Positions 3,413 to 45,147 of a stretch of DNA of 64,000 bases are shown here, piece after piece. The stretch is from a phage. Each line of letters begins with the position of its first letter. The first letter of the stretch is position 1. Location of the stretch: the sequence record PZ229304.1; one strand, 5' to 3'. Made by a program: the position numbers and the translations under genes. Under the pieces are notes generated by a model that was given only the letters and a program-made list of their open reading frames with translations, did no database searches and had not been told where the DNA came from.

Positions 3413-6187
3413 TTAGTTTACCAGTTTATTTATATCTGGTAAAAGATTTATTTCACCTAAAAAATCACCTTCACCTTCCTCTAACCAACTCTCATATGCT
3501 TGTGCATGATTATAGTTACCATCAAAAGAATCTGCAACAAATTTTTCTACAGTTTTTCGAGATGTGTCAGCGCCAAATACACCAAGTTTAATACCATTGA
3601 TCGGTAAAGTGGTACTTGTTGGTACTTTCTCTGTTGCAACACGGTTGATATCTATAATCTCCTGTACGGTTGTGTTCCATTGTAAGCATTTAACACAACG
3701 GGTATGCGCTACATACAGTAGGTTTCGCTCTGCCTCTTCCAGTCCTACCCATTCACCAGTCTTTTTATCATAGTTGGAAGGAAAATCATTAGCAACAATA
3801 ACCTGATCCCACTCCAAACCTTTAGACTTGTGTGCTGTAGTCAGTGTGACTTTTGCTGTAGGAGAATTTCTATGCGTTCTAAGTGTATGTGCTATAGTGT
3901 TTGCCTTACCAGAAACTACGATGTTTAACAAGCGTTTAGCATCTGGATCAGCCTCTGCACACTCAACAAATTCATTCCAGTCTGCGTAAGGTAATACAGT
4001 TTCATGTTTTACTTTCTCAATATCTCCTCTCCGAAGAGCATTAACACTATCTACCATAGAGATAAAATCCCTGGTATCTACGTTAATAATAATTTCTTCC
4101 CCATCTGCAATACGATCCATTGCCTCCATAAGCAAGGTTAAATTCTTGCGAAAGATGATAGTGTAAGGTTTTGTATAGTCTACAACATCTGATTTGTAGC
4201 TACCTACTACAGTATCAAAGCCTTTACCAACCAAAGGGTGACGCAAAGGTTCTTTATCGCTTAAAATCATATTGGCAATGTTTGCCACTTTGGGGCCAAA
4301 ACGGAAGCAAGCAGTTAATGGAAGCTCTGCTCCATACTTAGCTGTTTCAATCATCATATTAGAGCTACCTCTAAATTGATAAATGCAGTTGTGGCTAAGA
4401 ATTTCATTACCAAAGAAGTTAGCAGTATCCTCTACTTCAATATCATAATAGATACCTTCACTATCTACAATGTCCACAATTTCTTCTGCCGTTACAGTAT
4501 CACCATCTTTTACCAACACAGACATGCCTTTAAACAAACCCGCCGCCGGAATTAAAGTATATTTGGCGGTGTTCACAGAGGACATGCATTCTTTTAAAGA
4601 TGCAAACGGCACTATTTCAAGGATCTTTTGTGCAAAACTCAATGCTTCACGATAAGAATTGAAATATTTACGTACACGGTAACGACCTTCCAACTTAGCA
4701 ACACTTACGCTTACACCTGCTTCAATGAGTGAAGCATAGATTGACATTTCACTTTCTGTCCACTCAAAACTAACTTGTGTTCCTTTACAACCTTGTGCTC
4801 GCAAAGTCACTGTTAACATTTTTCTTTCATCTACTGCACAATTGATGCTGTGCCAATGTGGATAAGCAAAATGATAATCTTTATCCTCTAAAAGTTTAAA
4901 ACCGTTTTGTCCGAATTGTTCAAAAATGTTATTGATCCTTTCTTGATTAATGCCGCGTGAACTTGCTTCAAATACACAAGTAGGAATGCCATATTGTAAA
5001 CTGTATGCCATTTCTTTTTCCATAGCAGCTTCACGGTTTTCAACAATATCCAACACCCATAATTTCTGTGCTTTTTCAGAACGTGTACGTTGCCCCAGTT
5101 TAGAAAAACCTTCTTTATCATCGAATTTGTTAGTGATCCCTACTCGGAAACCTAAATCTTTCCTCCACATTAGGTATACCACCATCTGATCATCTTTCAG
5201 AACATAGGATGAAGCCCAAATACGATGGTTATGTGTCATATCTAAAGTTTTACCTGTGGCAGTAATAATATTCCTACCTTTTGTACGTGTAGATAAAGTC
5301 TTATTTGTTACTTTTCTAAATGTAATTTTACCATTAGAATAAGACTCTACCTTATCACCGATTTGTAGGTCTTTCATTGTAACCTGACCATTCTCGGTAT
5401 TAAGTACCGTGTTTTCCGACACACATTGGAATTCATCGCCCACTACCACAATTTGTTTTGCAGATTTAGCATTTCGCAGAATAGACAAGAATGCAGGGTT
5501 AACATCCTGGAATTCATCACCAAAAATAATGTCATAACCAAGGTCAGCACCTGATAATTCAAACAATTTTACATAGGTGTCATGCGTCATCAAAGTATCT
5601 GTGTTAGGATCGATGCGCTCTCGCCACAATTGTTTTGCATACTTAACTACTTCTGTAATTAGTTTGTGTTCGTTAATACCTTTTCTTTTAATATCTGCAA
5701 GATGTACACTAGGAAAATGTTTACGGCTGATAAAAGGATCATCCGAAAATTCAAACTTACCTACGGTTTGCTTGATCATTAAACCAATCATAGCACGAGT
5801 TAACAGTGTTTTCCCTCGTTTATCAATAAGATTATTAATCTTAAATTTCTTTGCTATCTCGCTACCTGTACCTGCAACGTTAACATACTGTCCTTCTGGT
5901 CGTGACAGTTTTGCACGTAAACGATGATCCAGGAATTGATAGCAAATAGAATGCAATGTACGGCATTCTACATTTAGTGGCATCTTACGTCGTGCTTCTT
6001 CTGCCATGCTTTTATTGAAAGCTAAGTAAAGAATGCGATCTTCTGTACTGTTAGCCAGCAAATAAAGTGTTGACGTTTTGCCTGATCCAGATTTAGCTTG
6101 GATAGTTAAAAAGCGATGGTCTGGAAAAGCCTCCTTAATAGCTGTTTGCTCTTCTGTTGGAGTGAAGCTCAACTCTTTCTTAGCCAT
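3413..6187 (-). CDS. UvrD/PcrA-like SF1 DNA helicase interrupted by an in-frame intein
   Basis: Walker A (AKSGSGKTST), motif II (GDEFQDVNP), motif III split as GDEFQ / C-IYQFRGS, motif V (TAHKSKGLEWDQVIV), motif VI (LLYVAHTRC). Start trimmed from TTG at 6226 to ATG at 6187 with RBS. Confidence 0.8.
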   Translation of the reverse strand: MAKKELSFTPTEEQTAIKEAFPDHRFLTIQAKSGSGKTSTLYLLANSTEDRILYLAFNKSMAEEARRKMPLNVECRTLHSICYQFLDHRLRAKLSRPEGQYVNVAGTGSEIAKKFKINNLIDKRGKTLLTRAMIGLMIKQTVGKFEFSDDPFISRKHFPSVHLADIKRKGINEHKLITEVVKYAKQLWRERIDPNTDTLMTHDTYVKLFELSGADLGYDIIFGDEFQDVNPAFLSILRNAKSAKQIVVVGDEFQCVSENTVLNTENGQVTMKDLQIGDKVESYSNGKITFRKVTNKTLSTRTKGRNIITATGKTLDMTHNHRIWASSYVLKDDQMVVYLMWRKDLGFRVGITNKFDDKEGFSKLGQRTRSEKAQKLWVLDIVENREAAMEKEMAYSLQYGIPTCVFEASSRGINQERINNIFEQFGQNGFKLLEDKDYHFAYPHWHSINCAVDERKMLTVTLRAQGCKGTQVSFEWTESEMSIYASLIEAGVSVSVAKLEGRYRVRKYFNSYREALSFAQKILEIVPFASLKECMSSVNTAKYTLIPAAGLFKGMSVLVKDGDTVTAEEIVDIVDSEGIYYDIEVEDTANFFGNEILSHNCIYQFRGSSNMMIETAKYGAELPLTACFRFGPKVANIANMILSDKEPLRHPLVGKGFDTVVGSYKSDVVDYTKPYTIIFRKNLTLLMEAMDRIADGEEIIINVDTRDFISMVDSVNALRRGDIEKVKHETVLPYADWNEFVECAEADPDAKRLLNIVVSGKANTIAHTLRTHRNSPTAKVTLTTAHKSKGLEWDQVIVANDFPSNYDKKTGEWVGLEEAERNLLYVAHTRCVKCLQWNTTVQEIIDINRVATEKVPTSTTLPINGIKLGVFGADTSRKTVEKFVADSFDGNYNHAQAYESWLEEGEGDFLGEINLLPDINKLVN
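4388..5425 (-). mobile_element. intein (346 aa) inside helicase motif III; central domain may be a homing endonuclease of unidentified type
   Basis: N-terminal Cys (codon aca at 5423-5425 on plus, TGT on minus), block B-like TxxH (MTHNH), C-terminal YDIEVEDTANFFGNEILSHN followed by +1 Cys (4385-4387); removing it restores the canonical motif III GDEFQ-CIYQFRG. Confidence 0.7.
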
Positions 6188-9642: not shown

Positions 9643-9909
9643 CTAATTACTGTTAGATCTGTATTCTGTCTTCCATTCGCAATGGTAAACTTCAACAGGT
9701 TCTAACTTCCAATGTTCAGGAACTAATTCAGGACAATATCTACAAAAGAGAAATAGATAGATAACTAAGACAGGTATTAAATAGTAAAATGGTATACGAT
9801 CATAACCATACTTACGAGATAACATGTAGACATAGAGATAGGGTATAACAATTAATCCTATAACTATAAGTAAGAAGAGAAGTATAAACCTTAGTGTAGT
9901 AACATCCAT
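9643..9909 (-). CDS. small membrane protein (two predicted TM helices)
   Basis: Hydrophobic stretches FILLFLLIVIGLIVIPYLYVYML and YYLIPVLVIYLFLF. Confidence 0.45.
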   Translation of the reverse strand: MDVTTLRFILLFLLIVIGLIVIPYLYVYMLSRKYGYDRIPFYYLIPVLVIYLFLFCRYCPELVPEHWKLEPVEVYHCEWKTEYRSNSN

Positions 9910-9987
9910 AGTATTCTCCTATACAGTAATATACTCTGTTCCTGCCCCTCCATGAGTGACAGGAACAATATCTATAGAGAATACTAA

Positions 9988-10040
9988 CTCGCTTCGCTCG
10001 TCACCTTTCAGGTTTAGGGTAGCATGTTTTTCTGAAAAAG
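9988..10040. repeat. intergenic repeat element, copy 1 (CTCGCT-TCGCTCG ... TTAGGGTAGCATGTTTTT.GAAAAGT)
   Basis: Near-identical core to 36897-36950. Confidence 0.5.
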
Positions 10041-10073
10041 TCAATACTCTCCACAAAACTTTACAAAATACTT

Positions 10074-14934: not shown

Positions 14935-14949
14935 GTAAGCCAGCAAATA

Positions 14950-14974
14950 AAAACCCGCTTCGGCGGGTTTTCTT
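14950..14974 (+). terminator. intrinsic terminator
   Basis: AACCCGCTTCGGCGGGTT hairpin followed by TTCTTG. Confidence 0.6.
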
Positions 14975-16754: not shown

Positions 16755-16967
16755 TATTTTGAAAATTTTTATTTTTATAAAAAGGGGTGTGGGTTTCATG
16801 TACGGAAATCCACCCTCTGAATAATATATCCAGAGTAAATATTATTCTGTACTCTGTTAATAAAGTATTTAATTTGTTTGTTGGACTATGGTATCTGATC
16901 TTTAAAAGGCATACTATCTCTTAACTACTACTTATAACAGAACAGTAAAATCATTTTTATAAAAAGG

Positions 16968-17170
16968 ACAAAATTATTTAAAGTTTTTACAGATTTTTGG
17001 GTACAAATTTTGAAAATGAAAAGTTCAAGTTTGGTCAAAATTATTTAAAGTTTTTGTATGTATTTCTATCCAGATTTTGAAAATGAAAACTTCAATTTTT
17101 TAAAAATTCCCCAGTTTATTTAAAGTTTTTTTGCCTTTTTCCGTAGAAAAATCAAAAATGAAAAGTTCAA
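16968..17170. repeat. three tandem direct repeats of about 67-72 bp (TATTTAAAGTTTTT ... TTTTGAAAATGAAAAGTTCAA), iteron-like
   Basis: Read directly in non-coding DNA. Confidence 0.6.
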
Positions 17171-17196
17171 TTTCGTGTTTTTATAGGTGTGCGTAT

Positions 17197-17306
17197 GATA
17201 ATCATTCTCATTTGTAAATGAGAATCATTATCATTTAAGTATGTAAGTGATAATCATTCTCATTAAGAGAATGAGAATCATTAGCAAATGAGAATTTTTC
17301 TCATTT
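17197..17306. promoter_or_regulatory. cluster of Fur-box-like palindromes (GATAATCATTCTCATT x2, AATGAGAATCATTATC)
   Basis: AAATGAGAATCATTATC matches the Fur consensus GATAATGATAATCATTATC at about 16/19 by hand. Confidence 0.45.
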
Positions 17307-17567
17307 AGAGAATAACGCGCAGGGGCGGTGTTTGTCTCGCGCTCCCGTGTCCCCTCGCCATACAATAAGAATAGCATAACCAACAACAAAAGCAAGCGAT
17401 TATTTTTATCTTTACATTTCTTTACAAATTTATTTTAGACGAGCTACCGGCGATCAACCTTCCAACCAGTGCCCCCTGGTATGTTAGCCCCGCCTTTACG
17501 CCGTGGGGGTGGCGCTTCCTCTTCTGTATGTAAAACAGTATAAGCCCGATCCCTGGGCTTGTCAAGA

Positions 17568-17933: not shown

Positions 17934-18266
17934 TTAAAAAAATGGTTGACGTTCCTCACCTGGTAGCGTAATATTCATCTTGTCGAGGGGGGCAAGGCAC
18001 AACGACAATAAACAATAGGCGGGTGCAATGCATGACGGGCAAAGGTGAGGATCTCCACAATCCACCGTCACAATAACATTACTTATAAAAGGTTGATAAC
18101 GATGATCAAGAAAGAAAATAGCTTGACGGTTGGAACGATTAACGCTATCATTCTCGCCGTTCCATTTTGGATTGTAGTGGCGGTTGTTATTTTCTAAAAA
18201 ATATTCTTGACAACGTTTTTTAATCTGATAAGATGTATCACATAGGGCGGCAATAGTGCCGCTCAT
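17934..18266 (-). CDS. hypothetical Cys-rich protein (uncertain)
   Basis: 110-aa ORF with ATG start, but its 5' end overlaps the promoter/hairpin of the first plus-strand cassette. Confidence 0.2.
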   Translation of the reverse strand: MSGTIAALCDTSYQIKKRCQEYFLENNNRHYNPKWNGENDSVNRSNRQAIFFLDHRYQPFISNVIVTVDCGDPHLCPSCIAPAYCLLSLCLAPLDKMNITLPGEERQPFF

Positions 18267-18286
18267 AACAGAAGAGAGAAATAATC

Positions 18287-18559
18287 ATGGCATCATATAG
18301 CGCATCAATGATCGTAGCTGGCATCACTGGTAAACCTATGCGCGGTGGCGGATCTTTCGCTAACATCAATATTGATGGACGTTTATCCCTGGACGCAGCG
18401 ATCACCGTGGCACGGGAAACGTTTAAAAAAGAATGTAATTTCAATAAACAAGATTATCTCGGTTTCGCTATTGAAAAAACCGCGCGATTTGTGGATTATA
18501 AAAGCCCGAAAATGATCGACACTACACTAAAAGCGCAAGATGTAGCGTTTTTGCTTTAA
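18287..18559 (+). CDS. hypothetical protein (cassette gene)
   Basis: Preceded by TTGACA promoter, CACATAGGGCGGCA..TGCCGCT hairpin and AGAGAG RBS. Confidence 0.5.
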   Translation: MASYSASMIVAGITGKPMRGGGSFANINIDGRLSLDAAITVARETFKKECNFNKQDYLGFAIEKTARFVDYKSPKMIDTTLKAQDVAFLL

Positions 18560-18562
18560 GGC

Positions 18563-18622
18563 TTGACACTGAAAAATACTTTGTTAATATATACCACATA
18601 AGGCGGGGAAATGGTTTCCCGC
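18563..18622 (+). promoter_or_regulatory. sigma70-type promoter (TTGACA-N16-TAATAT) plus 5' leader hairpin GGCGGGGAAATGGTTTCCCGCC
   Basis: Read directly; same architecture recurs through the array. Confidence 0.6.
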
Positions 18623-18645
18623 CAAATCAAAGAAAGGGTAATGCA

Positions 18646-19008
18646 ATGAGCAAGCAAATCAATACTATCATGTTTAATCTGGTATCTTTCCGCGATGACG
18701 TGAAAAACCTTTCGCGTGGTGCAGTGGATGCACGGATCGAAAGCTATCGCACACAGATCGCAACGTTACCGCTGAAACGTGATCAACATGCCGCTAATAT
18801 GATGCTTGATGCTATGATTAAAAAGATGATTCAATGTGATCTTACTCTGGCTTATGAATATGCTGGCGATCTCTTTGTAACGTATAACAAGCCCGTTCCA
18901 GGTATGAGCACCACGGAAGAATTGCATGCCTTAAATCTGCGACAAGATGCATGGGATAACATGCGCCGTGTTATGGTATGGGTAGAAAGCGGCAAAATTT
19001 ACGCGTAA
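18646..19008 (+). CDS. hypothetical protein (cassette gene)
   Basis: 120-aa track ORF downstream of promoter-hairpin unit. Confidence 0.5.
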   Translation: MSKQINTIMFNLVSFRDDVKNLSRGAVDARIESYRTQIATLPLKRDQHAANMMLDAMIKKMIQCDLTLAYEYAGDLFVTYNKPVPGMSTTEELHALNLRQDAWDNMRRVMVWVESGKIYA

Positions 19009-19083
19009 AGATTGACATTACACGAAAACCTGATAAGCTATCTTAAAGCGGGAATAGTTCCCGCTTACATAGGATAAAACTTT

Positions 19084-19230
19084 ATGAAACAATATGTAAT
19101 GAGTATTCATACCAAAAACGGCGCTACTGTTACGACTCCGGCACGGTTTGCACTTGTAAACCGTTGCAAGAGACTAAAACGAGAGCTAAAAAATAACCGT
19201 GCAACCGGTTTTAAACGCTGGGGAGGATAA
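19084..19230 (+). CDS. small basic protein (48 aa)
   Basis: Own translation MKQYVMSIHTKNGATVTTPARFALVNRCKRLKRELKNNRATGFKRWGG; preceded by TTGACA promoter and GCGGGAATAGTTCCCGC hairpin. Confidence 0.3.
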   Translation: MKQYVMSIHTKNGATVTTPARFALVNRCKRLKRELKNNRATGFKRWGG

Positions 19231-19232
19231 TC

Positions 19233-19493
19233 TTGTTTTTTCTAAAAGTTTTTGATAATGTGATCGCTTTTGAACATGCTACGACGTTCGACCTGGCGAG
19301 ATACGCTATCAGGTTTAAAGATAATGTTTATCCCCGTGCTGGCGGCGGTTACACTATTTTTAATCATCGTAACGCTCAATTAACGGATATAACTAATCCA
19401 GGCCCTGGAGTGTATCGCATAGGCTGGCTACCGTCAAAAGACGCGGCAAGCATGTTTAAGGTATGTAAACTACTAACAGAAGAGGCGAACTAA
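19233..19493 (+). CDS. hypothetical protein
   Basis: 86-aa track ORF, TTG start just after GGAGGA. Confidence 0.35.
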   Translation: MFFLKVFDNVIAFEHATTFDLARYAIRFKDNVYPRAGGGYTIFNHRNAQLTDITNPGPGVYRIGWLPSKDAASMFKVCKLLTEEAN

Positions 19494-19494
19494 C

Positions 19495-20049
19495 ATGGGG
19501 CGTGAGTATGTGATCCAGTCCTGGGTAAAGCATGACGCTAATGATCCGCGCATAATACCAGATGACATGATCGATCACATGGTAGGGTATAGCGGGGAGC
19601 AGATAGGAAATCGAGCGGCAAAGAGCAACGGCAACACAAAGGCGCGATCCGTTCGCCCTGGTTGGCTGGCAAATGGTAACGCTGACATTGCAAGCGCCGC
19701 AGATCCAAGCGATGACGCTAAAAATAATCCCTTGTACAGCATTGATCCGGCTTTTAAGGTGTTGGAAGAGTATCCCGCTAAATTAGCCGCACTAGATAAG
19801 GCATACGAAGAAAAGCGCATGGCATGGACTGTATACAACACCGCTAAAATGGTGCTAGATGCAAAATTGATTAAAGCCCAGGAGAAGATCAATAAACTTG
19901 TTACCATAGCGCAAGAGGAAGACCAGGACGACCAGGAGGAAGAGGAAGAAATCATGCCTATCCTGGAAGAGGAAGAGATCCAGCCATACATGCCGACGGA
20001 AGAGGAAAAAAGACAAGCCCTAAAAAATTACGAAAATTGTATTGTGTAA
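19495..20049 (+). CDS. hypothetical protein with acidic C-terminus
   Basis: 184-aa track ORF; the longer antisense frame 19575-19991 is treated as a shadow. Confidence 0.45.
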   Translation: MGREYVIQSWVKHDANDPRIIPDDMIDHMVGYSGEQIGNRAAKSNGNTKARSVRPGWLANGNADIASAADPSDDAKNNPLYSIDPAFKVLEEYPAKLAALDKAYEEKRMAWTVYNTAKMVLDAKLIKAQEKINKLVTIAQEEDQDDQEEEEEIMPILEEEEIQPYMPTEEEKRQALKNYENCIV

Positions 20050-20195
20050 GGCTTGACATATGCAAACAAGCCCCGTAATATGTACCACATAAAGCGGGGC
20101 AACGCCCCATAAGGTGAAATAAAAAATCACTTGACACCTGAAATCAGTAAGCTATAATGCTTATATAGATTGAAACATTACTAAGGAATAAAAGC

Positions 20196-20375
20196 ATGGC
20201 TATTATTGCAAAGACTGAGATCGTAGGTTTAGATTCTATCATCCTGGCATATGAGGAAGCTATAGAAATGTATGTGGTTTCCTATGGTGATTATATCCGT
20301 GAATATAAATCTATTGATCTAGCTTTTGAATGTTATATTCGCCAGGTAAATAAAGCATACGATGATTATCGTTAA
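20196..20375 (+). CDS. small hypothetical protein (59 aa)
   Basis: Own translation; TTGACA-N17-TATAAT promoter at 20131-20160 and AAGGAA RBS. Confidence 0.3.
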   Translation: MAIIAKTEIVGLDSIILAYEEAIEMYVVSYGDYIREYKSIDLAFECYIRQVNKAYDDYR

Positions 20376-20470
20376 AAGTTTTAGTCTTGTGCTATTGACA
20401 ACGAACGATAGTACAAGCATAATAACTTTTATCGGGAATACTCCTAACTAATCAAAAGAGATTAAAGACT

Positions 20471-20836
20471 ATGGCTAAAAATATCAATGTTTCTGCTTAT
20501 GCTACCCTGGCTAACACTGCTAAAATTGAACTATCCAGCATTGAAGCGGTACATATTAGCGCCCGTCGCTGGTTTCAAAAGTCTTATGGTAATACTTATT
20601 TCTCTTTGATGGTTGACGTTGAGATCGGCGGTAAACTGATTGAAGTCGTTAACGTTCCGTTTCAATATGGCTACGGGGATCATTTTGATACCGTTGCCCT
20701 AGAAGAGTTTAGCAAGGTTATCAACCTGGAAGGTAAAGACTTTTCAAATTATGCTTACCTTTCCCGCTTTTGCCGTGATAATGGGATCGCTGTATACAGT
20801 CATGCAAGCGATGTTAAACGTAAAAAAGATTTATAA
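20471..20836 (+). CDS. hypothetical protein (cassette gene)
   Basis: 121-aa track ORF with TTGACA promoter at about 20394. Confidence 0.5.
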   Translation: MAKNINVSAYATLANTAKIELSSIEAVHISARRWFQKSYGNTYFSLMVDVEIGGKLIEVVNVPFQYGYGDHFDTVALEEFSKVINLEGKDFSNYAYLSRFCRDNGIAVYSHASDVKRKKDL

Positions 20837-20924
20837 AAAGCATTGACAGCACGAATAAAAAGCATATAATACTTATATCGAGAGCGGGAATAGTTCCCGC
20901 CTCACTGAAAAAGAGATTAACATC

Positions 20925-21164
20925 ATGGCTAAATCTAAAATGTACAACGGTCACAAAAATAAAACTCATTGGAATGTAAGCCTTTGGATCAACAATGATG
21001 AAGGTTTTTATAATCTTGCACGTGAATTTATTGCAGCTAACACCAATAAGAATGACGCAGCGCGTGATATGATGCTATTTCTTGAAAGTATGGATCAAGA
21101 TAAAACGCCAGACGGTTACAAGTTCAGTAAAACTGCAATCCGCGCCGCGATGGTTGGAATGTAA
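20925..21164 (+). CDS. hypothetical protein (cassette gene)
   Basis: 79-aa track ORF; TTGACA-N16-TATAAT and GCGGGAATAGTTCCCGCC hairpin upstream. Confidence 0.5.
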   Translation: MAKSKMYNGHKNKTHWNVSLWINNDEGFYNLAREFIAANTNKNDAARDMMLFLESMDQDKTPDGYKFSKTAIRAAMVGM

Positions 21165-21259
21165 AGGAGACATAAAAATGAAACATCGTTCGACCTATCT
21201 CACAAAACGTTTTAGCTTAGATCATAAATTGGGCTATTACGGAAGAAATAGAAAATAAT

Positions 21260-21319
21260 TTGACAACGTTTTAAATTAGTGTAATATATATCACATAGGG
21301 CGGGAAATGGTTTCCCGCC
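21260..21319 (+). promoter_or_regulatory. sigma70-type promoter (TTGACA-N17-TAATAT) plus 5' leader hairpin GGCGGGAAATGGTTTCCCGCC
   Basis: Read directly. Confidence 0.6.
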
Positions 21320-21341
21320 AAATCAAAGAAAGGTTATCATT

Positions 21342-21569
21342 ATGGCTATCGTTATTGTTCGCGTATCCGGTACGGTTGGAATCTCTCAGGTAGTAGCAGT
21401 TATCACAGAGAAGAAAGGAGATGATCTTCACTCCTCCTTGAATAGCTGGGCGGTCGCTAATTTTGGGCAATGGTCGAGCGTTGAGTACATCGAATCCTAC
21501 CAGGTGCCAACGATTAGCCTGACCGATCTGAATGTTGATCGCTTGTTGTGCCTGGATCAATTAAATTAA
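21342..21569 (+). CDS. hypothetical protein (cassette gene)
   Basis: 75-aa track ORF. Confidence 0.45.
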   Translation: MAIVIVRVSGTVGISQVVAVITEKKGDDLHSSLNSWAVANFGQWSSVEYIESYQVPTISLTDLNVDRLLCLDQLN

Positions 21570-21655
21570 AAATAATATTGACAAGATAACTAAAATCAGT
21601 AAAATGTAATGCATAGGGCGGCACTATTGCCGCCCTAGTGAGAGAGATTATCAAA

Positions 21656-21871
21656 ATGGCTAATATCCGCACACTGTTAAAAAATGCAAGTCAAGTTTTA
21701 TTTTCAGATGACGAATATTTTAATAAAGATATTACAGGCGTGAAAAATTTAAAAGACGTGAAGGATGTTATCGGTATCCGTGGATCTTTACGTAAAGGTG
21801 ACATATACGGTAACAAGGTGCAGTATAAACTGTCAAAAGATTATGATTTTACTTTGACAATTATTTCATAA
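21656..21871 (+). CDS. hypothetical protein (cassette gene)
   Basis: Trimmed to ATG at 21656 (MANIRTLLKN) because the track start lies inside the leader hairpin. Confidence 0.45.
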   Translation: MANIRTLLKNASQVLFSDDEYFNKDITGVKNLKDVKDVIGIRGSLRKGDIYGNKVQYKLSKDYDFTLTIIS

Positions 21872-21962
21872 AACTACTTGCAAACCTGGTAAAATAAAGT
21901 AAACTATATTCATTAAGGCGGTGGAATAGCCAACCGCCTAACAAAGAGAAGAGGAAAACATC

Positions 21963-22133
21963 ATGATCACTTTCGCTACCCGTGAAGCCGCTCGCAACGT
22001 TGCACGTAAAGTTAACGCCGCCAACCTGGGCGCTACGCTTAAAGCCCCGGTAAAAGATGAATCAGGAAAATGGATCTTCCCTGGTCTGCGTCACGCTGAT
22101 AAGCTGGGAACATTAACGTTAAAAAATAAATAA
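21963..22133 (+). CDS. small hypothetical protein (56 aa)
   Basis: Own translation MITFATREAARNVARKVNAANLG..; promoter, hairpin and AGAGAAGAGGA RBS upstream. Confidence 0.4.
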   Translation: MITFATREAARNVARKVNAANLGATLKAPVKDESGKWIFPGLRHADKLGTLTLKNK

Positions 22134-22140
22134 TATTCGC

Positions 22141-22199
22141 TTGACAGTAGCATCATTTATAAGTAAAGTAACAACAACGGCGGGAAATGGTTTCCCGCC
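22141..22199 (+). promoter_or_regulatory. sigma70-type promoter (TTGACA-N17-TAAAGT) plus leader hairpin GGCGGGAAATGGTTTCCCGCC
   Basis: Read directly. Confidence 0.6.
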
Positions 22200-22219
22200 A
22201 TCAATAAAGAGATAAGATT

Positions 22220-22579
22220 ATGAAATCAGCAAAAGCAATTAAAACTTACATTTTGTCGGCTATTTCTTTTGATGGTACTACAACCGAAAAAGAAAAAATC
22301 ACCGAACTGATGCGCCGTTTTAATTCTGAATACTGGTATCCCGATAATCAAAAACGTTACAATTATAACGTGATCAAGGCGATAGCCTCATGGTTACAAG
22401 GTTTACCGTCAGAAATCAATATTGCTTTTGATTATAACGAGATCGATCACTTGTTAATTGAATGGAAGTACATAAAAGAAACAAGCAAAGAAACAACCGT
22501 TACCCGTGAGCGGGAAAATTATTGGTTATATATTGCAAGCATGATCGTAATCCTGGCAAAACAGCATAACGTGGCGTAA
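22220..22579 (+). CDS. hypothetical protein (cassette gene)
   Basis: 119-aa track ORF. Confidence 0.5.
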   Translation: MKSAKAIKTYILSAISFDGTTTEKEKITELMRRFNSEYWYPDNQKRYNYNVIKAIASWLQGLPSEINIAFDYNEIDHLLIEWKYIKETSKETTVTRERENYWLYIASMIVILAKQHNVA

Positions 22580-22594
22580 TTAAGAGGAAGAAAC

Positions 22595-22732
22595 ATGAAC
22601 GCATCACAGCAGATCGAAAAATTCAACCGCAGCAAGGCGCGTAAAGATTGGAACGAAGAGATCACCAAAAAAGGTGACAAGCGGAACAAAACAAAGAGAG
22701 ATCGCAGCACAAAAAGATACTGGAACGAATAA
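22595..22732 (+). CDS. small basic protein (45 aa)
   Basis: Own translation; AAGAGGAAG RBS; terminator immediately after. Confidence 0.3.
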   Translation: MNASQQIEKFNRSKARKDWNEEITKKGDKRNKTKRDRSTKRYWNE

Positions 22733-22735
22733 CAA

Positions 22736-22762
22736 AAAAGGGCGCAATAAGCGCCCTTTTAG
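22736..22762 (+). terminator. intrinsic terminator
   Basis: AGGGCGCAATAAGCGCCCT hairpin plus T-run. Confidence 0.6.
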
Positions 22763-22850
22763 CTTATATAGAGGCTTGTTACCCATAGGCAATGGTAACG
22801 CCAGGGCAAGCCTATAAATCAACGTTAGACGGCTTTACAGGAGCTTTAAA

Positions 22851-23033
22851 ATGAGATTAGAAGAAATAAGCAAGGCACTAGCCCAGGGGCAAAGGTTAAA
22901 CGCCCGTTATCGTGATCAATATGGTTTCATAACTAGCGGCGTGATCCTGGGGATTGAAGACAATAAGATTTTTATTGACACGTTGAAAAACGTTGTATAT
23001 AGTGACAATATAATCTCAATAAAACATATATGA
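22851..23033 (+). CDS. hypothetical protein
   Basis: 60-aa track ORF. Confidence 0.35.
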   Translation: MRLEEISKALAQGQRLNARYRDQYGFITSGVILGIEDNKIFIDTLKNVVYSDNIISIKHI

Positions 23034-23041
23034 GGCAAGAA

Positions 23042-23443
23042 ATGAAAAAATTATTGATCGCTGGTTTACTCTCTTTTGGCATGGTTGGAACATCTAGCGC
23101 GGCGATATCCTCCACAGTAGCAGAATTAAGCGCCGTTGATGCAATGGAAAACGTCATGCTTATTAACAATGCGATCCCCGATGAAATCATGGAGGATTCA
23201 CACATGATCGCTTATGGTGCTGTTACACAACTAACGGCAAAAATAGATAAATCTATTGTTAATGGCTTAAATGAAGATGTACCATGTGAAATTATTACAA
23301 GTGTGCTGACTACTCAAAATTTTACGCCGTGGTTAAAAAGTATTCAAAAAGTACACAGTACAGCCGCAGATCGTAGCAATGAAAAACTAGTGTCAGCACT
23401 TGCAACGTATACCCTGGCAAAATGCACCGAGATAAAAGATTGA
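23042..23443 (+). CDS. secreted protein with signal peptide
   Basis: Trimmed to ATG 23042; MKKLLIAGLLSFGMVGTSSAA is a typical Sec signal. Confidence 0.5.
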   Translation: MKKLLIAGLLSFGMVGTSSAAISSTVAELSAVDAMENVMLINNAIPDEIMEDSHMIAYGAVTQLTAKIDKSIVNGLNEDVPCEIITSVLTTQNFTPWLKSIQKVHSTAADRSNEKLVSALATYTLAKCTEIKD

Positions 23444-23490
23444 CAACATAGAAAGCACGTTATAAGATACACACAACAAAGGAGAACTAC

Positions 23491-23787
23491 ATGAACGGCA
23501 TAGCTAAAACGTTTTTTCTTTTTTCTGGTGTAAATGATCCATCAATAAAAGTCGATAGTGTAAAAGAAAACAATACTATCACAGCTAAATTGTATCAAGA
23601 TGAAACAAATAACGTGCTAATCATTAATCTTAAAGAAATAACAAAAGGTTATTATGCTATTGCTTACCATGCGATTTATCATGCTGGTACTAGTGAGGAA
23701 GTGCAAACAAGCAACAACGAAAGCGCGGCGCTACCTGGTGATCTGGTGCTGGGCGTTATCAGTTTAATTGTCAATGATTTTTTTTAA
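23491..23787 (+). CDS. hypothetical protein
   Basis: 98-aa track ORF with TTGACA promoter at about 23443. Confidence 0.45.
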   Translation: MNGIAKTFFLFSGVNDPSIKVDSVKENNTITAKLYQDETNNVLIINLKEITKGYYAIAYHAIYHAGTSEEVQTSNNESAALPGDLVLGVISLIVNDFF

Positions 23788-24123
23788 GGAGTAAAACCAT
23801 GCCCTATTTACATTTATTTTTCGGTATCTTATTGACGGGATCTTTTTTCTTCTGTATGCTTGTTTCTATTGTAAACCACGTTTTAAGACATTAAGGAAAC
23901 AGCATGAAAATTATTCCCGTACAATATAGCGTAATAAATCCAGCATACGAGGAAGGAAGGAAAACAAGCATGGCTTTATGTTGTATTACTACTATAGCCA
24001 TGTTGTTATACATTGTGTTTTAATAGGTTTTATAGTTGTACGCTTTAAAGGCTTGACAATTTTTTGTTATGCTTTAAACTATATCTTGAAAACGGCAAAG
24101 GCCGCAAACAAAAGGGTAAAATT

Positions 24124-24447
24124 ATGAAATCTGTGATCGGTGTTTATTTGGATAACTCTGATTTTTTCTATCATCGCGCTCGTTTCCTTGATGCGATTGA
24201 AATGATAGAATCAGGCTTTAAAGAGTATCGCCTTGCACATGATGACCTGGAAGCATTACAGGGCAATAGTGTTTTTACATTGCAAGCGAAAGCACTATGT
24301 AAAAGCCGGATCGACATTGCGAGCAAAAAGATAGAACGCGGCATGTCCTGGTTGCGCACCGCAGAAATCAACATGGGGCAATGGCACGGCGAAAACTTAG
24401 AAAATAAACATACTTTTGTCAATGTAGAAAATATTGAAGATTATTGA
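24124..24447 (+). CDS. hypothetical protein
   Basis: Trimmed to ATG 24124 (MKSVIGVYLD). Confidence 0.45.
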   Translation: MKSVIGVYLDNSDFFYHRARFLDAIEMIESGFKEYRLAHDDLEALQGNSVFTLQAKALCKSRIDIASKKIERGMSWLRTAEINMGQWHGENLENKHTFVNVENIEDY

Positions 24448-24510
24448 TTGACAGCACACCTGATAAGTAGTATATTGTATCTCATAGAGCGGGGAAATGG
24501 TTTCCCCGCC
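24448..24510 (+). promoter_or_regulatory. sigma70-type promoter (TTGACA-N17-TATATT) plus leader hairpin GCGGGGAAATGGTTTCCCCGC
   Basis: Hairpin carries a compensatory G:C pair relative to the common GGCGGGAAA/TTTCCCGCC form. Confidence 0.6.
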
Positions 24511-24529
24511 TTAAAAGAAGAGATAAGCT

Positions 24530-24814
24530 ATGAAGATCACAAAAGCACTTTCCAACTATGCAGCACGTCGCGGCTTATGTTTAACCGTTGAAAACCTGGG
24601 GAAAGAAGATTTTTTGTGCTTTTGGGAGCTTGAGAATGATAATGAGTGGATCTTCTCTTATTCTATCTGCGAAGATCAAAACGGTTGTTTATTAACCTGG
24701 CGCGGTAATATCTATCTACCGGAAGAAATCAAAGAAGAATTGCCAGGCACGATCATGACTGAGAAACAGCTTAAGGAAGTGATCAATTTTGTAGGGCAAA
24801 ACATTAAAAAATAA
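24530..24814 (+). CDS. hypothetical protein (cassette gene)
   Basis: 94-aa track ORF. Confidence 0.5.
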   Translation: MKITKALSNYAARRGLCLTVENLGKEDFLCFWELENDNEWIFSYSICEDQNGCLLTWRGNIYLPEEIKEELPGTIMTEKQLKEVINFVGQNIKK

Positions 24815-24815
24815 T

Positions 24816-24875
24816 TTGACACCAGGCAAACAACGTAGTAAAGTTTATCACATAGGGCGGGAAATGGTTTCCCGC
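24816..24875 (+). promoter_or_regulatory. sigma70-type promoter (TTGACA-N17-TAAAGT) plus leader hairpin
   Basis: Read directly. Confidence 0.55.
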
Positions 24876-24897
24876 TCACAACAAAAGAGAACAAATC

Positions 24898-25068
24898 ATG
24901 ATCCCGACTATGTTTTACGTATCGCGCAAAGGTCACAATATTTTTTGGTCTGAAGATTTAAATGAAGCCATGACGTTTGCCCGTGATCGTGTTGCTATCG
25001 GTGGCGTTAACATTACTGTAACCGATGAAAACGGCATTGAATACTATAACGGCGACGATGAAGAGTAA
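24898..25068 (+). CDS. small hypothetical protein (56 aa)
   Basis: Own translation MIPTMFYVSRKGHNIFWSEDLNEAMTFARDRV.. Confidence 0.35.
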   Translation: MIPTMFYVSRKGHNIFWSEDLNEAMTFARDRVAIGGVNITVTDENGIEYYNGDDEE

Positions 25069-25115
25069 TTAATGAGGCGGGGGAGTATTCCCCGCCGTCA
25101 ATAAAGAGGTAAATC

Positions 25116-25385
25116 ATGAAAATATCATTTGACGTTGCAATCAAGGCCATCGAATCCGGTTACACCCTGGTAAAAGATGATAAGGCTAAAATAGTGCATC
25201 ATGTTAACAAGGAAACAGGCGAAAGCATGATCACATATAAAGCCGCCTACTTTCTCCAATCAGTAGCAGATCCGCGCGTACAGCGCCAGGTCACGGCGGC
25301 TATTGCTAAAAAATTATGTGCTTTACAGGGCACAAGTTTTAACGAGATCCCGCCGTGTTTTGACTGGTCGAGCTTGAAAAAATAG
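25116..25385 (+). CDS. hypothetical protein (cassette gene)
   Basis: 89-aa track ORF; hairpin variant GGCGGGGGAGTATTCCCCGCC upstream. Confidence 0.5.
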   Translation: MKISFDVAIKAIESGYTLVKDDKAKIVHHVNKETGESMITYKAAYFLQSVADPRVQRQVTAAIAKKLCALQGTSFNEIPPCFDWSSLKK

Positions 25386-25581
25386 TTTGACAATATGCGG
25401 TTATCTGGTAAAGTGTACCACGTAGGGCGGGGCAATAAGGCAACGCCCACTAATGAGGGTAAAATCATGTTAGAGAAAATTTTCACGGTTGTAGTAGTGG
25501 GCCTGGCGTTATCGGTTGGATTGGTTGCAACTATGGCTAACATGATCCTATCTTCCCACGGTATTGGATAAGGTGAATCAA

Positions 25582-25815
25582 ATGATCACGAATAAGACAG
25601 GTAAAACAGAATTTTTACGCGGCTTGCAAATAGGTAAACCTGAAATCTGGCATTGCACTAAAACACCACGTGACGAAATGAAAGATTTCACCGCTACTTT
25701 ACAACGTGTTAAAATATCTATCACACAGAAAAAAGCCTTGTTAGTAGTAGAAAACGAGATCCCGCAAACCAGATCGGGAATGATTTACATTTTACCCGTA
25801 ACGGTCACGGCGTAG
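25582..25815 (+). CDS. hypothetical protein
   Basis: Trimmed to ATG 25582; a 34-aa membrane peptide ORF lies just upstream (25468-25572). Confidence 0.4.
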   Translation: MITNKTGKTEFLRGLQIGKPEIWHCTKTPRDEMKDFTATLQRVKISITQKKALLVVENEIPQTRSGMIYILPVTVTA

Positions 25816-25943
25816 GCTTTTGGGATCGCCCTGAAATATACACTACTAACACCGCCAACCGCCTAACAAATGCGGCTAAATTAATGCCATCGGTGCATGC
25901 TTACATTGGTGAAGATAATTTGATTTATATTGAATAAAAAGTA

Positions 25944-26003
25944 TTGACACCGATCCCCCAATATGTTACTATTTACCACGTAGGCGGGAAATGGTTTCCC
26001 GCC
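25944..26003 (+). promoter_or_regulatory. sigma70-type promoter (TTGACA-N17-TACTAT) plus leader hairpin GGCGGGAAATGGTTTCCCGCC
   Basis: Read directly. Confidence 0.6.
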
Positions 26004-26026
26004 AGGTAATCAAAAAGGTAAATACT

Positions 26027-26416
26027 ATGCGCAACCTGGTTTCTGTTTCTAACGTTGAAAAATTCCAATCTTTACAGGGTATCGTTAACAACGTAGCGCC
26101 TTTTTTAGTCAATGGCTTGATTGCAAAGATGAAGAATAAACATCATGCCGCATGGTCTGCTTACTGCTTTGACAATGATGAAAAAGCGGCTGAAATGATG
26201 TTAAATATGCTGTTAGACAGTGTAGAATCATCTTTACCGGAAAACATCGCAGAAGAGATCACCTATCGTTATAATATGGCGATCACTTACCAGGAGGTTG
26301 CGCAATTTAATATGATGGACGATGACGAACAACAGGATCAGGAAATATTCTGGGAGTATGCGGATCGTCAATCGGCTTTTGATGAAAAGTTAGCGATGTA
26401 TTATAACGAATATTAA
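26027..26416 (+). CDS. hypothetical acidic protein
   Basis: Trimmed to ATG 26027 because the track start lies in the hairpin. Confidence 0.5.
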   Translation: MRNLVSVSNVEKFQSLQGIVNNVAPFLVNGLIAKMKNKHHAAWSAYCFDNDEKAAEMMLNMLLDSVESSLPENIAEEITYRYNMAITYQEVAQFNMMDDDEQQDQEIFWEYADRQSAFDEKLAMYYNEY

Positions 26417-26430
26417 TACACGGTAAAAGA

Positions 26431-26457
26431 AAGGGGCGCACTAAGCGCCCTTTTTTG
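26431..26457 (+). terminator. intrinsic terminator
   Basis: GGGGCGCACTAAGCGCCC hairpin plus TTTTTT. Confidence 0.65.
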
Positions 26458-26878
26458 TATTCTTTTTTCACAATGGAAGCGACACGTAAAGAATAGGCGT
26501 AAAGGTGGCGTAAAACCATCTAAAACCGACTGTAACCGCTTAAACAAGGTAGGAATGATTAATCACCTTACCAGGATGAAAAAGCTGTTATAAAGCTATA
26601 TAGGGCGTTTAAAGCACATAGGAAATAATTTGCTTTTTATCTTGCCTTTTATTCTGCTTTTGATTATTATTATGGAACGGGCGGCACCTGGGAACAGGGG
26701 AAGATAATCACCGGACGACCCCGCTATATATTGATAGCTAACATCTATCAAACAACAAAACATCAAAGGAATAAACTATCAAATCTTTACAATCTCATCT
26801 ATTGACCGGTAAATCATAGCAGTTTAATATTGTTTTTAGAGGGTAGAACATACCCAAAACGAAAACAGGAAAAAGAAA

Positions 26879-27115
26879 ATGAAAGAAGTCATGATCCTCA
26901 AAAAATCACCTATTTTACGTGGTGGCTTTATCGCTTACTCTGATGATCTGTTAATTGCAACGGTTGCAAAAATACTAAAATCAGAAGAGGATAGTAAAAA
27001 CGGCGTTTATCGTATCTGTTTCACCCGTGGGAAATTGCAAGGCAAGATCGCCTATGCTTTTGATTTACAAGATGTAAATGATAAAATCTGCGCTGTTATT
27101 GATTATGCAAAATAA
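26879..27115 (+). CDS. hypothetical protein
   Basis: 78-aa track ORF; TTGACC..TAATAT promoter about 26790. Confidence 0.45.
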   Translation: MKEVMILKKSPILRGGFIAYSDDLLIATVAKILKSEEDSKNGVYRICFTRGKLQGKIAYAFDLQDVNDKICAVIDYAK

Positions 27116-27202
27116 TTAACTTTCTTATTGACACCGGATCACGCTTACATTATTATTTATCACGTAGGGCAAATCATTTTAAACGGTAAACGAGGAATCA
27201 CC

Positions 27203-28440: not shown

Positions 28441-28766
28441 AGCTAATGTTTAGAACATTGGCTATAATATAAGCTAAATCATAAGCTATGCAATAATAAA
28501 CATGGTGAATAATGACATTGATGATCATAATGCGCCACCTTCCAGGGGGCGCTATGTGAACACAAAGAAATCTTTCTTGTCAAGAAAATATTACTACTAT
28601 TGCGCAAAATTATTTATATCTGAATAGATGATTTTTTATGCTATTGCCCCCTTGATTATTACTATTTGTTGCCCTAACTATTGTCATTTGTTGAGCCTAC
28701 TTTCTTAAAAGCGCAATAAATCAGAATTATCTTGATTTTTAGTCGGTTTTATAGTACAGAAAGTAT

Positions 28767-28785
28767 GCAAATGATAATCATTATC
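28767..28785. promoter_or_regulatory. near-consensus Fur-box-like site GCAAATGATAATCATTATC
   Basis: 17/19 identity to GATAATGATAATCATTATC by hand. Confidence 0.5.
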
Positions 28786-28951
28786 AGCTATCTTCCACGG
28801 GTGGCACTATTTCACGCCAGATCATTTCATTTGGCAAGGTGTATATAGATGTTTAGAAATGCCAAGCCATTGATTTACTTAGAATTTATCTGTTTTGTTG
28901 TGAGTAGTGCCTTTCTTGCTCAGAAAATAATCAAAAGTCTTATAAGTCATT

Positions 28952-28983
28952 GAATGATAATGCAAATGATAATTATTCTCATT
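28952..28983. promoter_or_regulatory. degenerate Fur-box-like repeats
   Basis: GAATGATAATGCAAATGATAATTATTCTCATT. Confidence 0.35.
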
Positions 28984-29428
28984 GATATTTGAGGGGGACG
29001 GTCGGCAGAAATCGGGGGGCGCTGAAAATCGCGTTAAGCACCTCTCGCAAGCGAGCAGTATTTTGCGGCAAGTTATTGATATTATTGACTTTACGCTTAA
29101 GAAAAGGGGGCGTGTCGAAATAAATCGGGTATACCGGAAAATTTTTGTGGCATAGATATTTATTTGTCTATATTATGTACAAAGGGGTGTGTTAAAAATA
29201 ATAGGTATATATAGAATAATTGATAGGGAAATCCTATACTAAATCCTTCATTAATGATGTTCCTATGTTGCTGTTCTTGTAATAGATGAAAAGACGCTAT
29301 ATGATGTGTGGCATGAAACGTAAACTTATAAGATGCAAATAATGCTTGCATTGAATAGAAATGTCTATACACTGTGTTTCATAAGATATGCAATATCGCG
29401 CATAACAAACTACTAATGAGAGGTGTAA

Positions 29429-36802: not shown

Positions 36803-36896
36803 GAGTAGTAAGTAAGATATAAAGAGTATATAGTTAGTTATAGAGTTAGTAACATTACATATACTCTTTCCATGTATAACATGGAATATTCTCTAC

Positions 36897-36950
36897 CTCG
36901 CTATCGCTCGGTATATAAGATTAGGGTAGCATGTTTTTTACGAAAAGTAA
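36897..36950. repeat. intergenic repeat element, copy 2
   Basis: CCTCGCTATCGCTCGG ... TTAGGGTAGCATGTTTTTTACGAAAAGTAAAA, matching 9988-10040. Confidence 0.5.
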
Positions 36951-37009
36951 AACTGTTTGTACCGATTGATAGCAGGTTTTTAATAGATTTTATCTATGAG
37001 GAGTAGAAA

Positions 37010-40488: not shown

Positions 40489-40493
40489 CACAT

Positions 40494-40518
40494 AAACCCG
40501 CTTCGGCGGGTTTTCTTG
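40494..40518 (+). terminator. intrinsic terminator (same hairpin sequence as 14950-14974)
   Basis: AAACCCGCTTCGGCGGGTTT plus TCTTG. Confidence 0.6.
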
Positions 40519-44859: not shown

Positions 44860-44886
44860 CAACAAAAAACCCGCCGAAGCGGGTTT
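44860..44886 (-). terminator. intrinsic terminator
   Basis: AAACCCGCCGAAGCGGGTTT hairpin with T-run on the minus strand. Confidence 0.55.
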
Positions 44887-44889
44887 ATA

Positions 44890-45147
44890 TTATTCTACAG
44901 GAACTTCTTCACCAAGAGAAACTTCTAAACGGAATGCTTTACTTTCAATACACTCACTACCTTTTAGAAAATCAAATTGCACTATAGACTGACTTAATAG
45001 GATAGATAGAATCACATCGCAATCTTCACTGGGCGCTAGATGTTTGTATTCTTCCTTCAAGGTAACATCATAAAAACATAAATCCCCTACTCCTAGTTCA
45101 TCCCATCCTTCCCACGCATCTACAAAGTTAAACTCTAAACCTTTCAT
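44890..45147 (-). CDS. hypothetical protein
   Basis: 85-aa track ORF. Confidence 0.4.
   Translation of the reverse strand: MKGLEFNFVDAWEGWDELGVGDLCFYDVTLKEEYKHLAPSEDCDVILSILLSQSIVQFDFLKGSECIESKAFRLEVSLGEEVPVE

Follow-up and report, generated by a model that had tools for sequence, protein, structure and literature searches.

What does a short intergenic sequence do when it recurs at distant places in a phage genome, once among genes of each strand? We address this question for a 64,000-nucleotide stretch of the record PZ229304.1 (hereafter, the window), which comes from a phi92-like coliphage of the genus Justusliebigvirus, subfamily Stephanstirmvirinae. A first-pass annotation, made from the sequence alone, described a bipartite element that occurs at 9988–10040, inside a block of minus-strand genes (copy 1), and again about 27 kb away at 36897–36950, inside a plus-strand block (copy 2). 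It considered a plain promoter to be an insufficient explanation, and suggested a small RNA gene, a recombination or homing target, or the binding site of a regulator. Here, we propose to class the element as a promoter–leader cassette, hitherto unannotated and present throughout the subfamily, that combines an invariant −10 core of unusual sequence with a mini-hairpin box, and not as a new kind of element. The cassette, about 120 bp long, would be co-regulated among its copies, would act on the strand opposite to the one written in the record, and would probably be read by a dedicated factor; this is a reading that we hold with moderate confidence.

Copies and conservation of the element

Direct reading of the sequence confirmed both copies, which share the same plus orientation. 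On the plus strand, box 1 lies at 9988–10000 in copy 1 (CTCGCTTCGCTCG) and at 36897–36910 in copy 2 (CTCGCTATCGCTCG), and each is followed on the same strand by an identical 18-mer, TTAGGGTAGCATGTTTTT, at 10014–10031 and 36921–36938, respectively. Box 1 differs between the copies by a 1-nt indel (CTCGCT-TCGCTCG versus CTCGCTATCGCTCG), so the 14-nt pattern given by the first-pass annotation matches copy 2 alone. The gap between the boxes had been put at 13–20 nt, and is in fact 13 nt in copy 1 and 10 nt in copy 2. The exact 18-mer occurs twice in the window; with up to three mismatches allowed, shuffled sequences yielded a mean of 0.11 matches, and none of 100 shuffles reached two. The likeness between the copies extends to the right as far as GTCAATAC/GTAAAAC and to the left, past a hairpin of differing sequence, to a common ATATACTCT. 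The repeat unit is thus about 120 bp long, spanning 9928–10048 and 36858–36955. In the curated annotation of phi92, both copies fall in non-coding gaps, between gp208 and gp209 and between gp023 and gp024.

The element is not confined to the window. Using BLAST, we found it in 134–149 phage records, mostly at two places in each, and nearly all of these belong to Stephanstirmvirinae, with carriers in Justusliebigvirus, Phapecoctavirus, and relatives infecting Klebsiella and Citrobacter. Queries of 2 kb around each copy retrieved 56 phage records at 95–99% identity, all of them phi92-like Justusliebigvirus coliphages. A profile made from the first 13 distinct copies and scanned over the complete phi92 genome returned exactly three sites (E ≤ 3.4 × 10−14; next best, E = 2.5). 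The third copy lies outside the window, at 47,892–47,971 of phi92 (FR775895.2). It is inverted, being on the minus strand, and occupies the gap between the divergent genes gp106A and gp107. Phage phAPEC8 carries the same three sites in identical orientations, with its third copy at 17382–17455 of the stretch examined, and the first two are present in the Citrobacter phage Tr1 and the Klebsiella phage FKP3. Pattern scans of viral and metagenome collections brought the set to 45 distinct copies, 38 of which were aligned for per-position conservation. We distinguished three classes of gene context, in which the element is flanked on both sides by minus-strand genes (c1), is flanked on both sides by plus-strand genes (c2), or lies in a divergent gap (c3).

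The non-coding nature of the element was upheld. Because the element is non-coding, recurs in further copies, and is conserved in relatives, the grounds on which the first-pass annotation would itself have abandoned it do not apply: this is a real repeated element, conserved across the subfamily. No match was found in 5,426 complete E. coli genomes, a search whose sensitivity is limited for so short a query, and none of the neighboring proteins had a match in Pfam.

A 343-bp direct terminal repeat is annotated in phi92 and has a single map position in the window, 28694–29036 (for phage BME3, a repeat of 342 bp is reported; PMC12210895). The physical ends of the genome thus lie between copies 1 and 2, at distances of about 8 kb (left end to copy 2) and about 19 kb (right end to copy 1).

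Promoter-like geometry and a proposed leader on the opposite strand

Over the 45 distinct copies, the invariant blocks are CTCGC, CGCTCG, TAGGGTA, CAT, and most of AGTCAA. AGGGTA and AGTCAA are separated by 17 nt in 41 of them and by 18 nt in the other four, and the sequence in between is widely variable. The gap between box 1 and box 2, unlike this neighboring spacer, ranges from 11 to 15 nt. On the opposite strand, the element reads TTGACT-N17-TACCCT with TG at −15/−14, which is the geometry of a sigma-70 −35 hexamer with an extended −10. This combination of a −35, a fixed 17-bp spacer, TGn, and TAnnnT is the sole canonical promoter geometry of the element.

Conservation was then resolved by position in the 38 aligned copies. 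The base counts of the −35 hexamer are T38, T38, G28/T10, A38, C37, and T34/A4, with T−35, T−34, and A−32 invariant in all 38. T−15 and G−14 are invariant, as are positions −12 to −6 in 38 of 38, including T−12, A−11, and T−7. Position −13 (C/G), the “n” of TGn, is the only variable base of the 11-mer TAGGGTA[G/C]CAT, neither strand of which was found in the relevant literature searched.

In copy 1, all on the minus strand, the −35-like TTGACT (reverse complement AGTCAA) is located at 10039–10044 with the flank GAGTATTGACTT, the 17-nt spacer at 10022–10038 ends in the TG of the extended −10 (CA at 10023–10024 on the plus strand), and the −10-like TACCCT (reverse complement AGGGTA) at 10016–10021 is followed by an invariant A. 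Based on this geometry, transcription would start near 10009. In copy 2, also on the minus strand, the corresponding features are TTTACT (reverse complement AGTAAA) at 36946–36951, a 17-nt spacer at 36929–36945 that likewise ends in TG (plus-strand CA at 36930–36931), and TACCCT at 36923–36928, with a predicted start near 36916 that would be antisense to the surrounding plus-strand genes. The −35 of copy 2 is weaker, as it matches TTGACA at four of six positions, versus five of six for copy 1.

The phage's other predicted promoters follow the grammar of the element: sites of the form −35/17–18/TGn/TAnnnT number 19 in the window, both element copies included, compared with about 9.3 in Markov controls. 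Eight of the 19 have a perfect TTGACA, and seven of these eight point in the same direction as the local genes. The single dissenter, TTGACA-18-TGnTACCGT at 21836 on the minus strand, is antisense within the plus-strand early block. Sigma-70-type promoters have been reported for the relative phage rV5, with an extended −10 in 11 of 33 (PMC3606486).

The first-pass annotation had set a promoter aside on the grounds that copy 1 is antisense to its genes. That dismissal falls because it assumed the written strand; the canonical geometry is on the opposite strand, where copy 1 runs with its genes and copy 2 against those around it. In class c1, the upstream gene has its stop codon a short way past the −35 side (no more than 22 nt past it in most genera, and 29 nt in the copy of the window), and the next gene starts about 65–80 nt beyond box 1. 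As far as can be judged from sequence, this spacing is the layout of an internal promoter. The predicted direction suits copy 1, a copy found in a chromosomal island (described below), and, ambiguously, copy 3; it does not suit copy 2.

Box 1 also takes on a recognizable form on the opposite strand, where it reads CGA-GC-G(N)NA-GC-GAG. In copy 1 (9988–10000, minus strand), it is CGAGCGAAGCGAG and contains GCGAAGC at 9991–9997, which fits GCGNAGC; in copy 2 (36897–36910, minus strand), it is CGAGCGATAGCGAG and contains GCGATAGC at 36900–36907, which fits GCGNNAGC. GCGNAGC/GCGNNAGC is a mini-hairpin DNA motif made of two G-C pairs and a sheared G-A pair (PMC13037366). By sequence, seven of the eight box 1 variants fit this motif, including GCGAAGC, GCGCAGC, GCGATAGC, GCGAAAGC, GCGGGAGC, and GCGTAAGC. 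The loop variants GAA, GCA, GATA, GAAA, GGGA, and GTAA agree with G(N)NA and GAAT does not, and the sole variant outside the motif is GCGAATGC, from copy 1 of Tr1. The indels and substitutions of box 1 are confined to the N (loop) positions of GCGN(N)AGC on this strand. The indel between copies 1 and 2 is thus a difference between a three-base and a four-base loop, which explains why a single pattern failed to match both.

The gap between the boxes always holds a small palindrome, and its sequence changes from copy to copy (ACCT/AGGT, ACCC/GGGT, CAC/GTG, AAC/GTT, ATC/GAT, or GTAT/ATAC). In copy 1, it is ACCT-TTC-AGGT at 10003–10013, called without a strand from the shuffle test and covariation. 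The mean best stem was 2.96 bp, versus 2.10 ± 0.13 in shuffles (a value reached by 0 of 2,000), and the pairs of this apical stem covary (AU 9, CG 9, UA 6), figures that overstate independence because the sequences are related. Folding revealed a variable hairpin at 9937–9967, again with no strand assigned, which separates box 1 of copy 1 from the next minus-strand gene (starting at 9909). The minus-strand leader of copy 1 folds with z = −2.9, and in this predicted fold AGUAUUCUC is paired with the Shine–Dalgarno region of the gene at 9643–9909.

Other structures around the boxes were considered as well. Copy 2 is preceded by a terminator-like hairpin, TTCCATGTATAACATGGAA, at 36868–36886 on the plus strand, which would serve the plus-strand operon that ends at 36802. 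We attempted to assign a strand to the upstream hairpins from G-U asymmetry, and the opposite strand was better by 5.4 kcal/mol on average. In shuffles, however, the scores were z = −2.15 versus −2.45, with 21 of 40 favoring the opposite strand; the advantage is thus due to base composition, and this line of evidence was dropped. Counts of G-U pairs in the apical stem were rejected as unreliable, since the consensus register is off in some rows. A hairpin between a T-run and an A-run downstream of box 2 is broken in several copies (e.g. GCATATATAAAAAC and GCATGAATTTTTCTTTT), and pairing between mRNAs that carry opposite copies was rejected because the two copies of a given genome do not change in concert. 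Metagenomic relatives have a conserved 46–55-aa open reading frame (ORF; MKINLDQVKDLTPK...VVYHP.KENG) that begins 16 nt past the element and has a strong ribosome-binding site; in the relatives with this ORF, back-to-back canonical promoters flank the element.

One copy of the cassette was found outside the phages, at 5320–5402 of the stretch examined from NZ_DATBBJ010000073.1, a 505-kb contig of a Scandinavium sp. metagenome-assembled genome. The order of this island is a tyrosine integrase, the cassette, small ORFs, an endonuclease VII-like gene, and a DUF5906 primase-like gene, beyond which lies a helix-turn-helix gene in divergent orientation. When read on the opposite strand, the cassette is co-directional with the run of small ORFs and the endonuclease VII-like and primase-like genes. 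The whole cassette is kept, including the odd −10 core and box 1. The rest of the island showed no other resemblance to phi92 or phAPEC8, and nine contexts of related integrases were without the cassette. The layout resembles that of a phage satellite, and this single instance raises the possibility that the island times its genes to phage infection.

From the observed sequence geometry, conservation pattern, copy number, and gene contexts, we infer initiation at these sites, its start point and timing, a trans-acting factor, and a silencing role for copy 2. Sigma-70 RNA polymerase would use the −35 TTGACT, the 17-bp spacer, TGn, and TACCCT followed by A, and would start about 7 nt downstream. 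Transcription of the roughly 120-bp cassette would pass through the short palindrome, the 13–15-nt box folding as a GC-G(N)NA-GC mini-hairpin, and the variable hairpin. Copy 1 would fire leftwards into a block of about 37 kb that includes helicase, ribonucleotide reductase, and DNA polymerase genes, copy 3 would act from its divergent gap, and copy 2 would fire antisense into the end of the plus-strand operon (which ends at 36802) at the left genome end. Together, the three copies would make up a small co-regulated promoter class, probably delayed-early or middle. The CCC of the −10 core and box 1 are invariant across genera and are kept in an unrelated island, which suggests that both are read by a dedicated factor, phage-encoded or host. 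The regulator binding site put forward by the first-pass annotation would thus form part of our reading, at box 1 and at the −10 core.

Several observations weigh against this reading and should be stated together. TACCCT matches the −10 consensus TATAAT at three of six positions, keeping T−12, A−11, and T−7, and plain sigma-70 recognition leaves the invariance of the CCC core unexplained. The spacer is partly constrained, in that positions −22 to −19 retain a partial A-run and positions −29 to −27 a partial T-run. The inter-box palindrome would straddle the predicted start, so a transcript from there could not hold the whole hairpin. Copy 2 runs antisense to the genes of its block in all genera examined. 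One group of relatives has the ribosome-binding site of a conserved 46–55-aa ORF only 8 nt beyond the −35 side, and the element there must therefore also be transcribed in the written direction. Finally, a generic promoter scan did not flag the element's site (such scans perform at chance in this AT-rich genome), and no transcriptome or 5′-end maps for Stephanstirmvirinae were found in the literature searched.

We know of no middle or late promoter class in phi92-like or phAPEC8-like phages, which are widely isolated and used in therapy cocktails. The three-copy cassette would supply exact candidate start sites for these phages, and is of interest for phage gene timing as a candidate switch that may include an antisense shut-off of the left-end early operon. 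The 13–15-nt box offers a defined bait for the factor that would read the cassette. If the island copy reflects hijacking, it would also be a pointer to a satellite of this phage group.

Alternative readings of the element

The alternative that survives best, which we nevertheless consider doubtful, places the function in an RNA of the written (element) strand. Box 1 (GCU/GCUC) would pair with box 2 (GGGU/AGC) beneath the variable apical stem, and the resulting irregular hairpin, located in the leader of the operon downstream, would be a signal for processing, attenuation, or antitermination, and an antisense RNA at the position of copy 1. RNAalifold, run on 29 copies, predicted this fold independently, and the apical stem on the element strand has 22 doubly changed cells against 8.4 ± 2.8 in shuffles, with lower values in slid controls. 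The two G-U pairs of the lower helix are possible on this strand only, the box 1 indel is located in a predicted bulge, and two copies have a C(UUCG)G apical loop. Transcription across the element in the written direction is also needed for the next gene in the copy 2 class and in the relatives with the MKINLDQ ORF. Against this, the consensus energy is weak (−4.6 kcal/mol), and the seven pairs of the lower helix never vary and hence provide no evidence from covariation. In copy 2 of Phapecoctavirus, a fixed G-to-C change breaks a lower-helix pair, yet lands on the free “n” of TGn. An RNA accounts neither for the fixed 17-nt distance to AGTCAA nor for the conservation of that hexamer, and copy 1 and the island copy would require an antisense promoter that is unexplained.

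Searches for known RNAs and terminators bear on the same question. The element has no Rfam family match: nothing in the window reached the gathering score in Rfam 15, permissive scans of both copies gave chance-level hits only, and a tRNA/tmRNA search of the window returned none. An intrinsic terminator was rejected, as the scan finds none at the boxes of copy 1 and, at copy 2, only the separate upstream hairpin. The T-run, where a copy has one, begins 3–4 nt downstream of the predicted stem. With no Rfam match, no terminator at the boxes, and the T-run missing in several copies, the small RNA gene suggested by the first-pass annotation is unsupported. Elsewhere in the window, near-identical bidirectional terminator hairpins (AAACCCGCTTCGGCGGGTTT) are found at 14946–14971, 40492–40514, and 44866–44891, one of which marks the convergence of plus- and minus-strand blocks near 40.5 kb.

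Alternatively, the element could be a DNA initiation site that works in single-stranded or R-loop form, which we judge to be rather unlikely. A purine-rich RNA made from the promoter-like part would serve as primer, hairpins on the displaced strand would mark a priming site or origin, and the direction of the fork would set the orientation of the copies. The fit of seven of the eight box 1 variants to the mini-hairpin motif speaks for this proposal, since the motif has been reported at the complementary-strand origins of G4, St-1, and alpha3, at RSF1010 ssiA, and at N4 early promoters (PMC13037366), and is thus associated with phage origins and N4 promoters. Each genome carries only three copies, their orientation is independent of the local gene strand, and on the concatemer map all three are directed outwards from one point between 8 and 48 kb. 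By sequence, the predicted initial transcript is purine-rich. On the other hand, the analogy depends on a motif of 7–8 nt, and no AT-rich unwinding element is conserved downstream. GC skew tracks gene strand only and has no inflection at copies 1 or 2; for the same reason, we rejected skew as a means of locating a replication origin. An iteron-like cluster at 16953–17304 is a separate and more conventional origin candidate. Within it, three tandem units of about 70 nt with 72% identity occupy 16953–17173, in a 0.8-kb non-coding gap between gp223-like and gp224-like genes, and these repeats are a conventional candidate for a replication origin or a regulatory region.

It is highly improbable that the direct copies serve for crossover or homing, for example as targets of the phi92 serine recombinase gp053, through which the 27-kb segment with the genome ends and early genes would be excised or exchanged. 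Copies 1 and 2 are indeed direct repeats flanking the early region, and a gene of the resolvase/invertase family is annotated in both phi92 and phAPEC8. However, the third copy is inverted, the element has no dyad-symmetric core of the serine-recombinase kind, and the location of the recombinase gene differs between the two genera. The position of the terminal repeat between the copies also counts against this reading, as excision would remove the packaging ends. The 2-kb flanking queries were matched over at least 80% in 56 of 56 close relatives at copy 1 and in 54 of 56 at copy 2, with no deletion or inversion variants seen, and the recombination or homing target of the first-pass annotation thus finds no support.

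We also rejected a role at the genome ends or in packaging, given that the terminal repeat is 8 and 19 kb away from the copies; a few record start positions lie near copy 2, and the majority are elsewhere. The terminal repeat has a feature of its own. Words such as GCAAATGATAATCATTATC, in which about 17 of 19 positions agree with the Fur box consensus of E. coli, occur inside it at 28765–28786, and also at 28512, 28960, 27835, and 17185–17304. These Fur box-like words gather at two places, namely the terminal repeat with its surroundings and a cluster of inverted repeats at 17.2 kb.

Several GenBank records make the element part of a small coding gene, a reading that is scarcely credible: 41–45-aa ORFs do overlap both copies, are called by some annotators, and share an RVACF motif in the plus frame, but they are annotated on opposite strands at the two copies, the 1-nt indel of box 1 shifts the frame, the copy 1 ORF has a GTG start only and no ribosome-binding site apparent upstream in the stretch inspected, the curated annotation of phi92 leaves both gaps empty, and conservation over the 45 copies is blockwise and not codon-patterned. 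Translations of both plus frames and of the minus ORF have only RVACF in common, a result of the shared DNA. The GenBank hypothetical proteins of 41–44 aa over the element, at 9919–10056 (minus) and 36872–37006 (plus) of the window, are probably over-calls, and a promoter–leader cassette at these sites would lead to such records being corrected.

Comparison with known systems

The proposed cassette has features in common with several known systems. With sigma-70 extended −10 promoters such as T7 A1, it shares TTGACT, a 17-bp spacer, TG at −15/−14, T−12, A−11, and T−7, and the T7 A1 promoter, as printed in PMC5995543, contains the same 12-mer as the −35 flank of copy 1 (GAGTATTGACTT). It differs from that class in that its −10 core is an invariant CCC and not A/T-rich, in the invariant box and the palindrome that follow the start, and in its three copies per genome, one of which runs against its gene block.

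PeSL elements of T4-type phages are promoter–stem-loop cassettes, reportedly described by Arbiol et al. in 2010. These, and a family in the window itself (TTGACA...TAAGAT with GGGCGGGAAA..CCCGCC), resemble the element in being short portable repeats in which a host-type promoter is followed by a conserved hairpin, intergenic between small genes. The element has a different −10 and leader, occurs as three dispersed copies and not as a dense array in the early region, and is found at fixed positions across genera as well as in an integrative island. In the window, about eight early-type promoters (TTGACA, 16–17 nt, TGn, TAAGAT/TAATAT) with a stem-loop, GGGCGGGAAAtggTTTCCCGCC, within about 10 nt were observed at 18207–27170; they precede small plus-strand genes and resemble the T4-type promoter–stem-loop cassettes.

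The ops site of RfaH is GGCGGTAGnnTG (GGCGGTAGCGTG) on the non-template strand, where RfaH reads G5 and T6, a TG pause occupies positions 11–12, and the change G5A abolishes recruitment (PMC5995543). Like box 1 in the proposed cassette, it is found shortly downstream of a promoter. The opposite strand of box 1, AGCGATAGCGAG, matches ops at 9 of 12 positions and can form a C:G-closed GNNA loop of the ops kind on what would be the non-template strand. It differs in having A, or a deletion in the triloop variants, at G5, and A-G in place of T11-G12. Box 1 is therefore not an ops site, and the analogy is at most one of mechanism. Pursuing that analogy, a box 1 mini-hairpin on the non-template strand, following a weak-core promoter, might load a dedicated phage-specific or host factor onto RNA polymerase by an ops/RfaH-like logic with another code, and so activate a pair of long gene blocks while simultaneously driving transcription antisense to the early operon; a satellite-like island would then have copied the cassette to sense infection. 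We offer this scheme as speculation and consider it distinctly unlikely.

Mini-hairpin motifs at G4-type origins, RSF1010 ssiA, and N4 act on single-stranded DNA, together with primases or the N4 virion polymerase. To our knowledge, phi92-like phages have no such enzyme or single-stranded stage. In contrast to those origins and to N4, the motif of the element adjoins double-strand promoter geometry.

Lastly, the late promoters of P2 and the Psid and PLL promoters of P4 are activated by Ogr/Delta, and the satellite copies the promoters of its helper. Compared with P2 and P4, there is a single island here, related integrases lack the cassette, and both the helper relation and the activator are putative. 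What the two cases share is the pattern itself, which is the one to be expected of an island that times its genes to the regulator of a helper: the same cassette is carried by a family of lytic phages and by an integrase-bearing island that is unrelated to them and has a primase-like gene.

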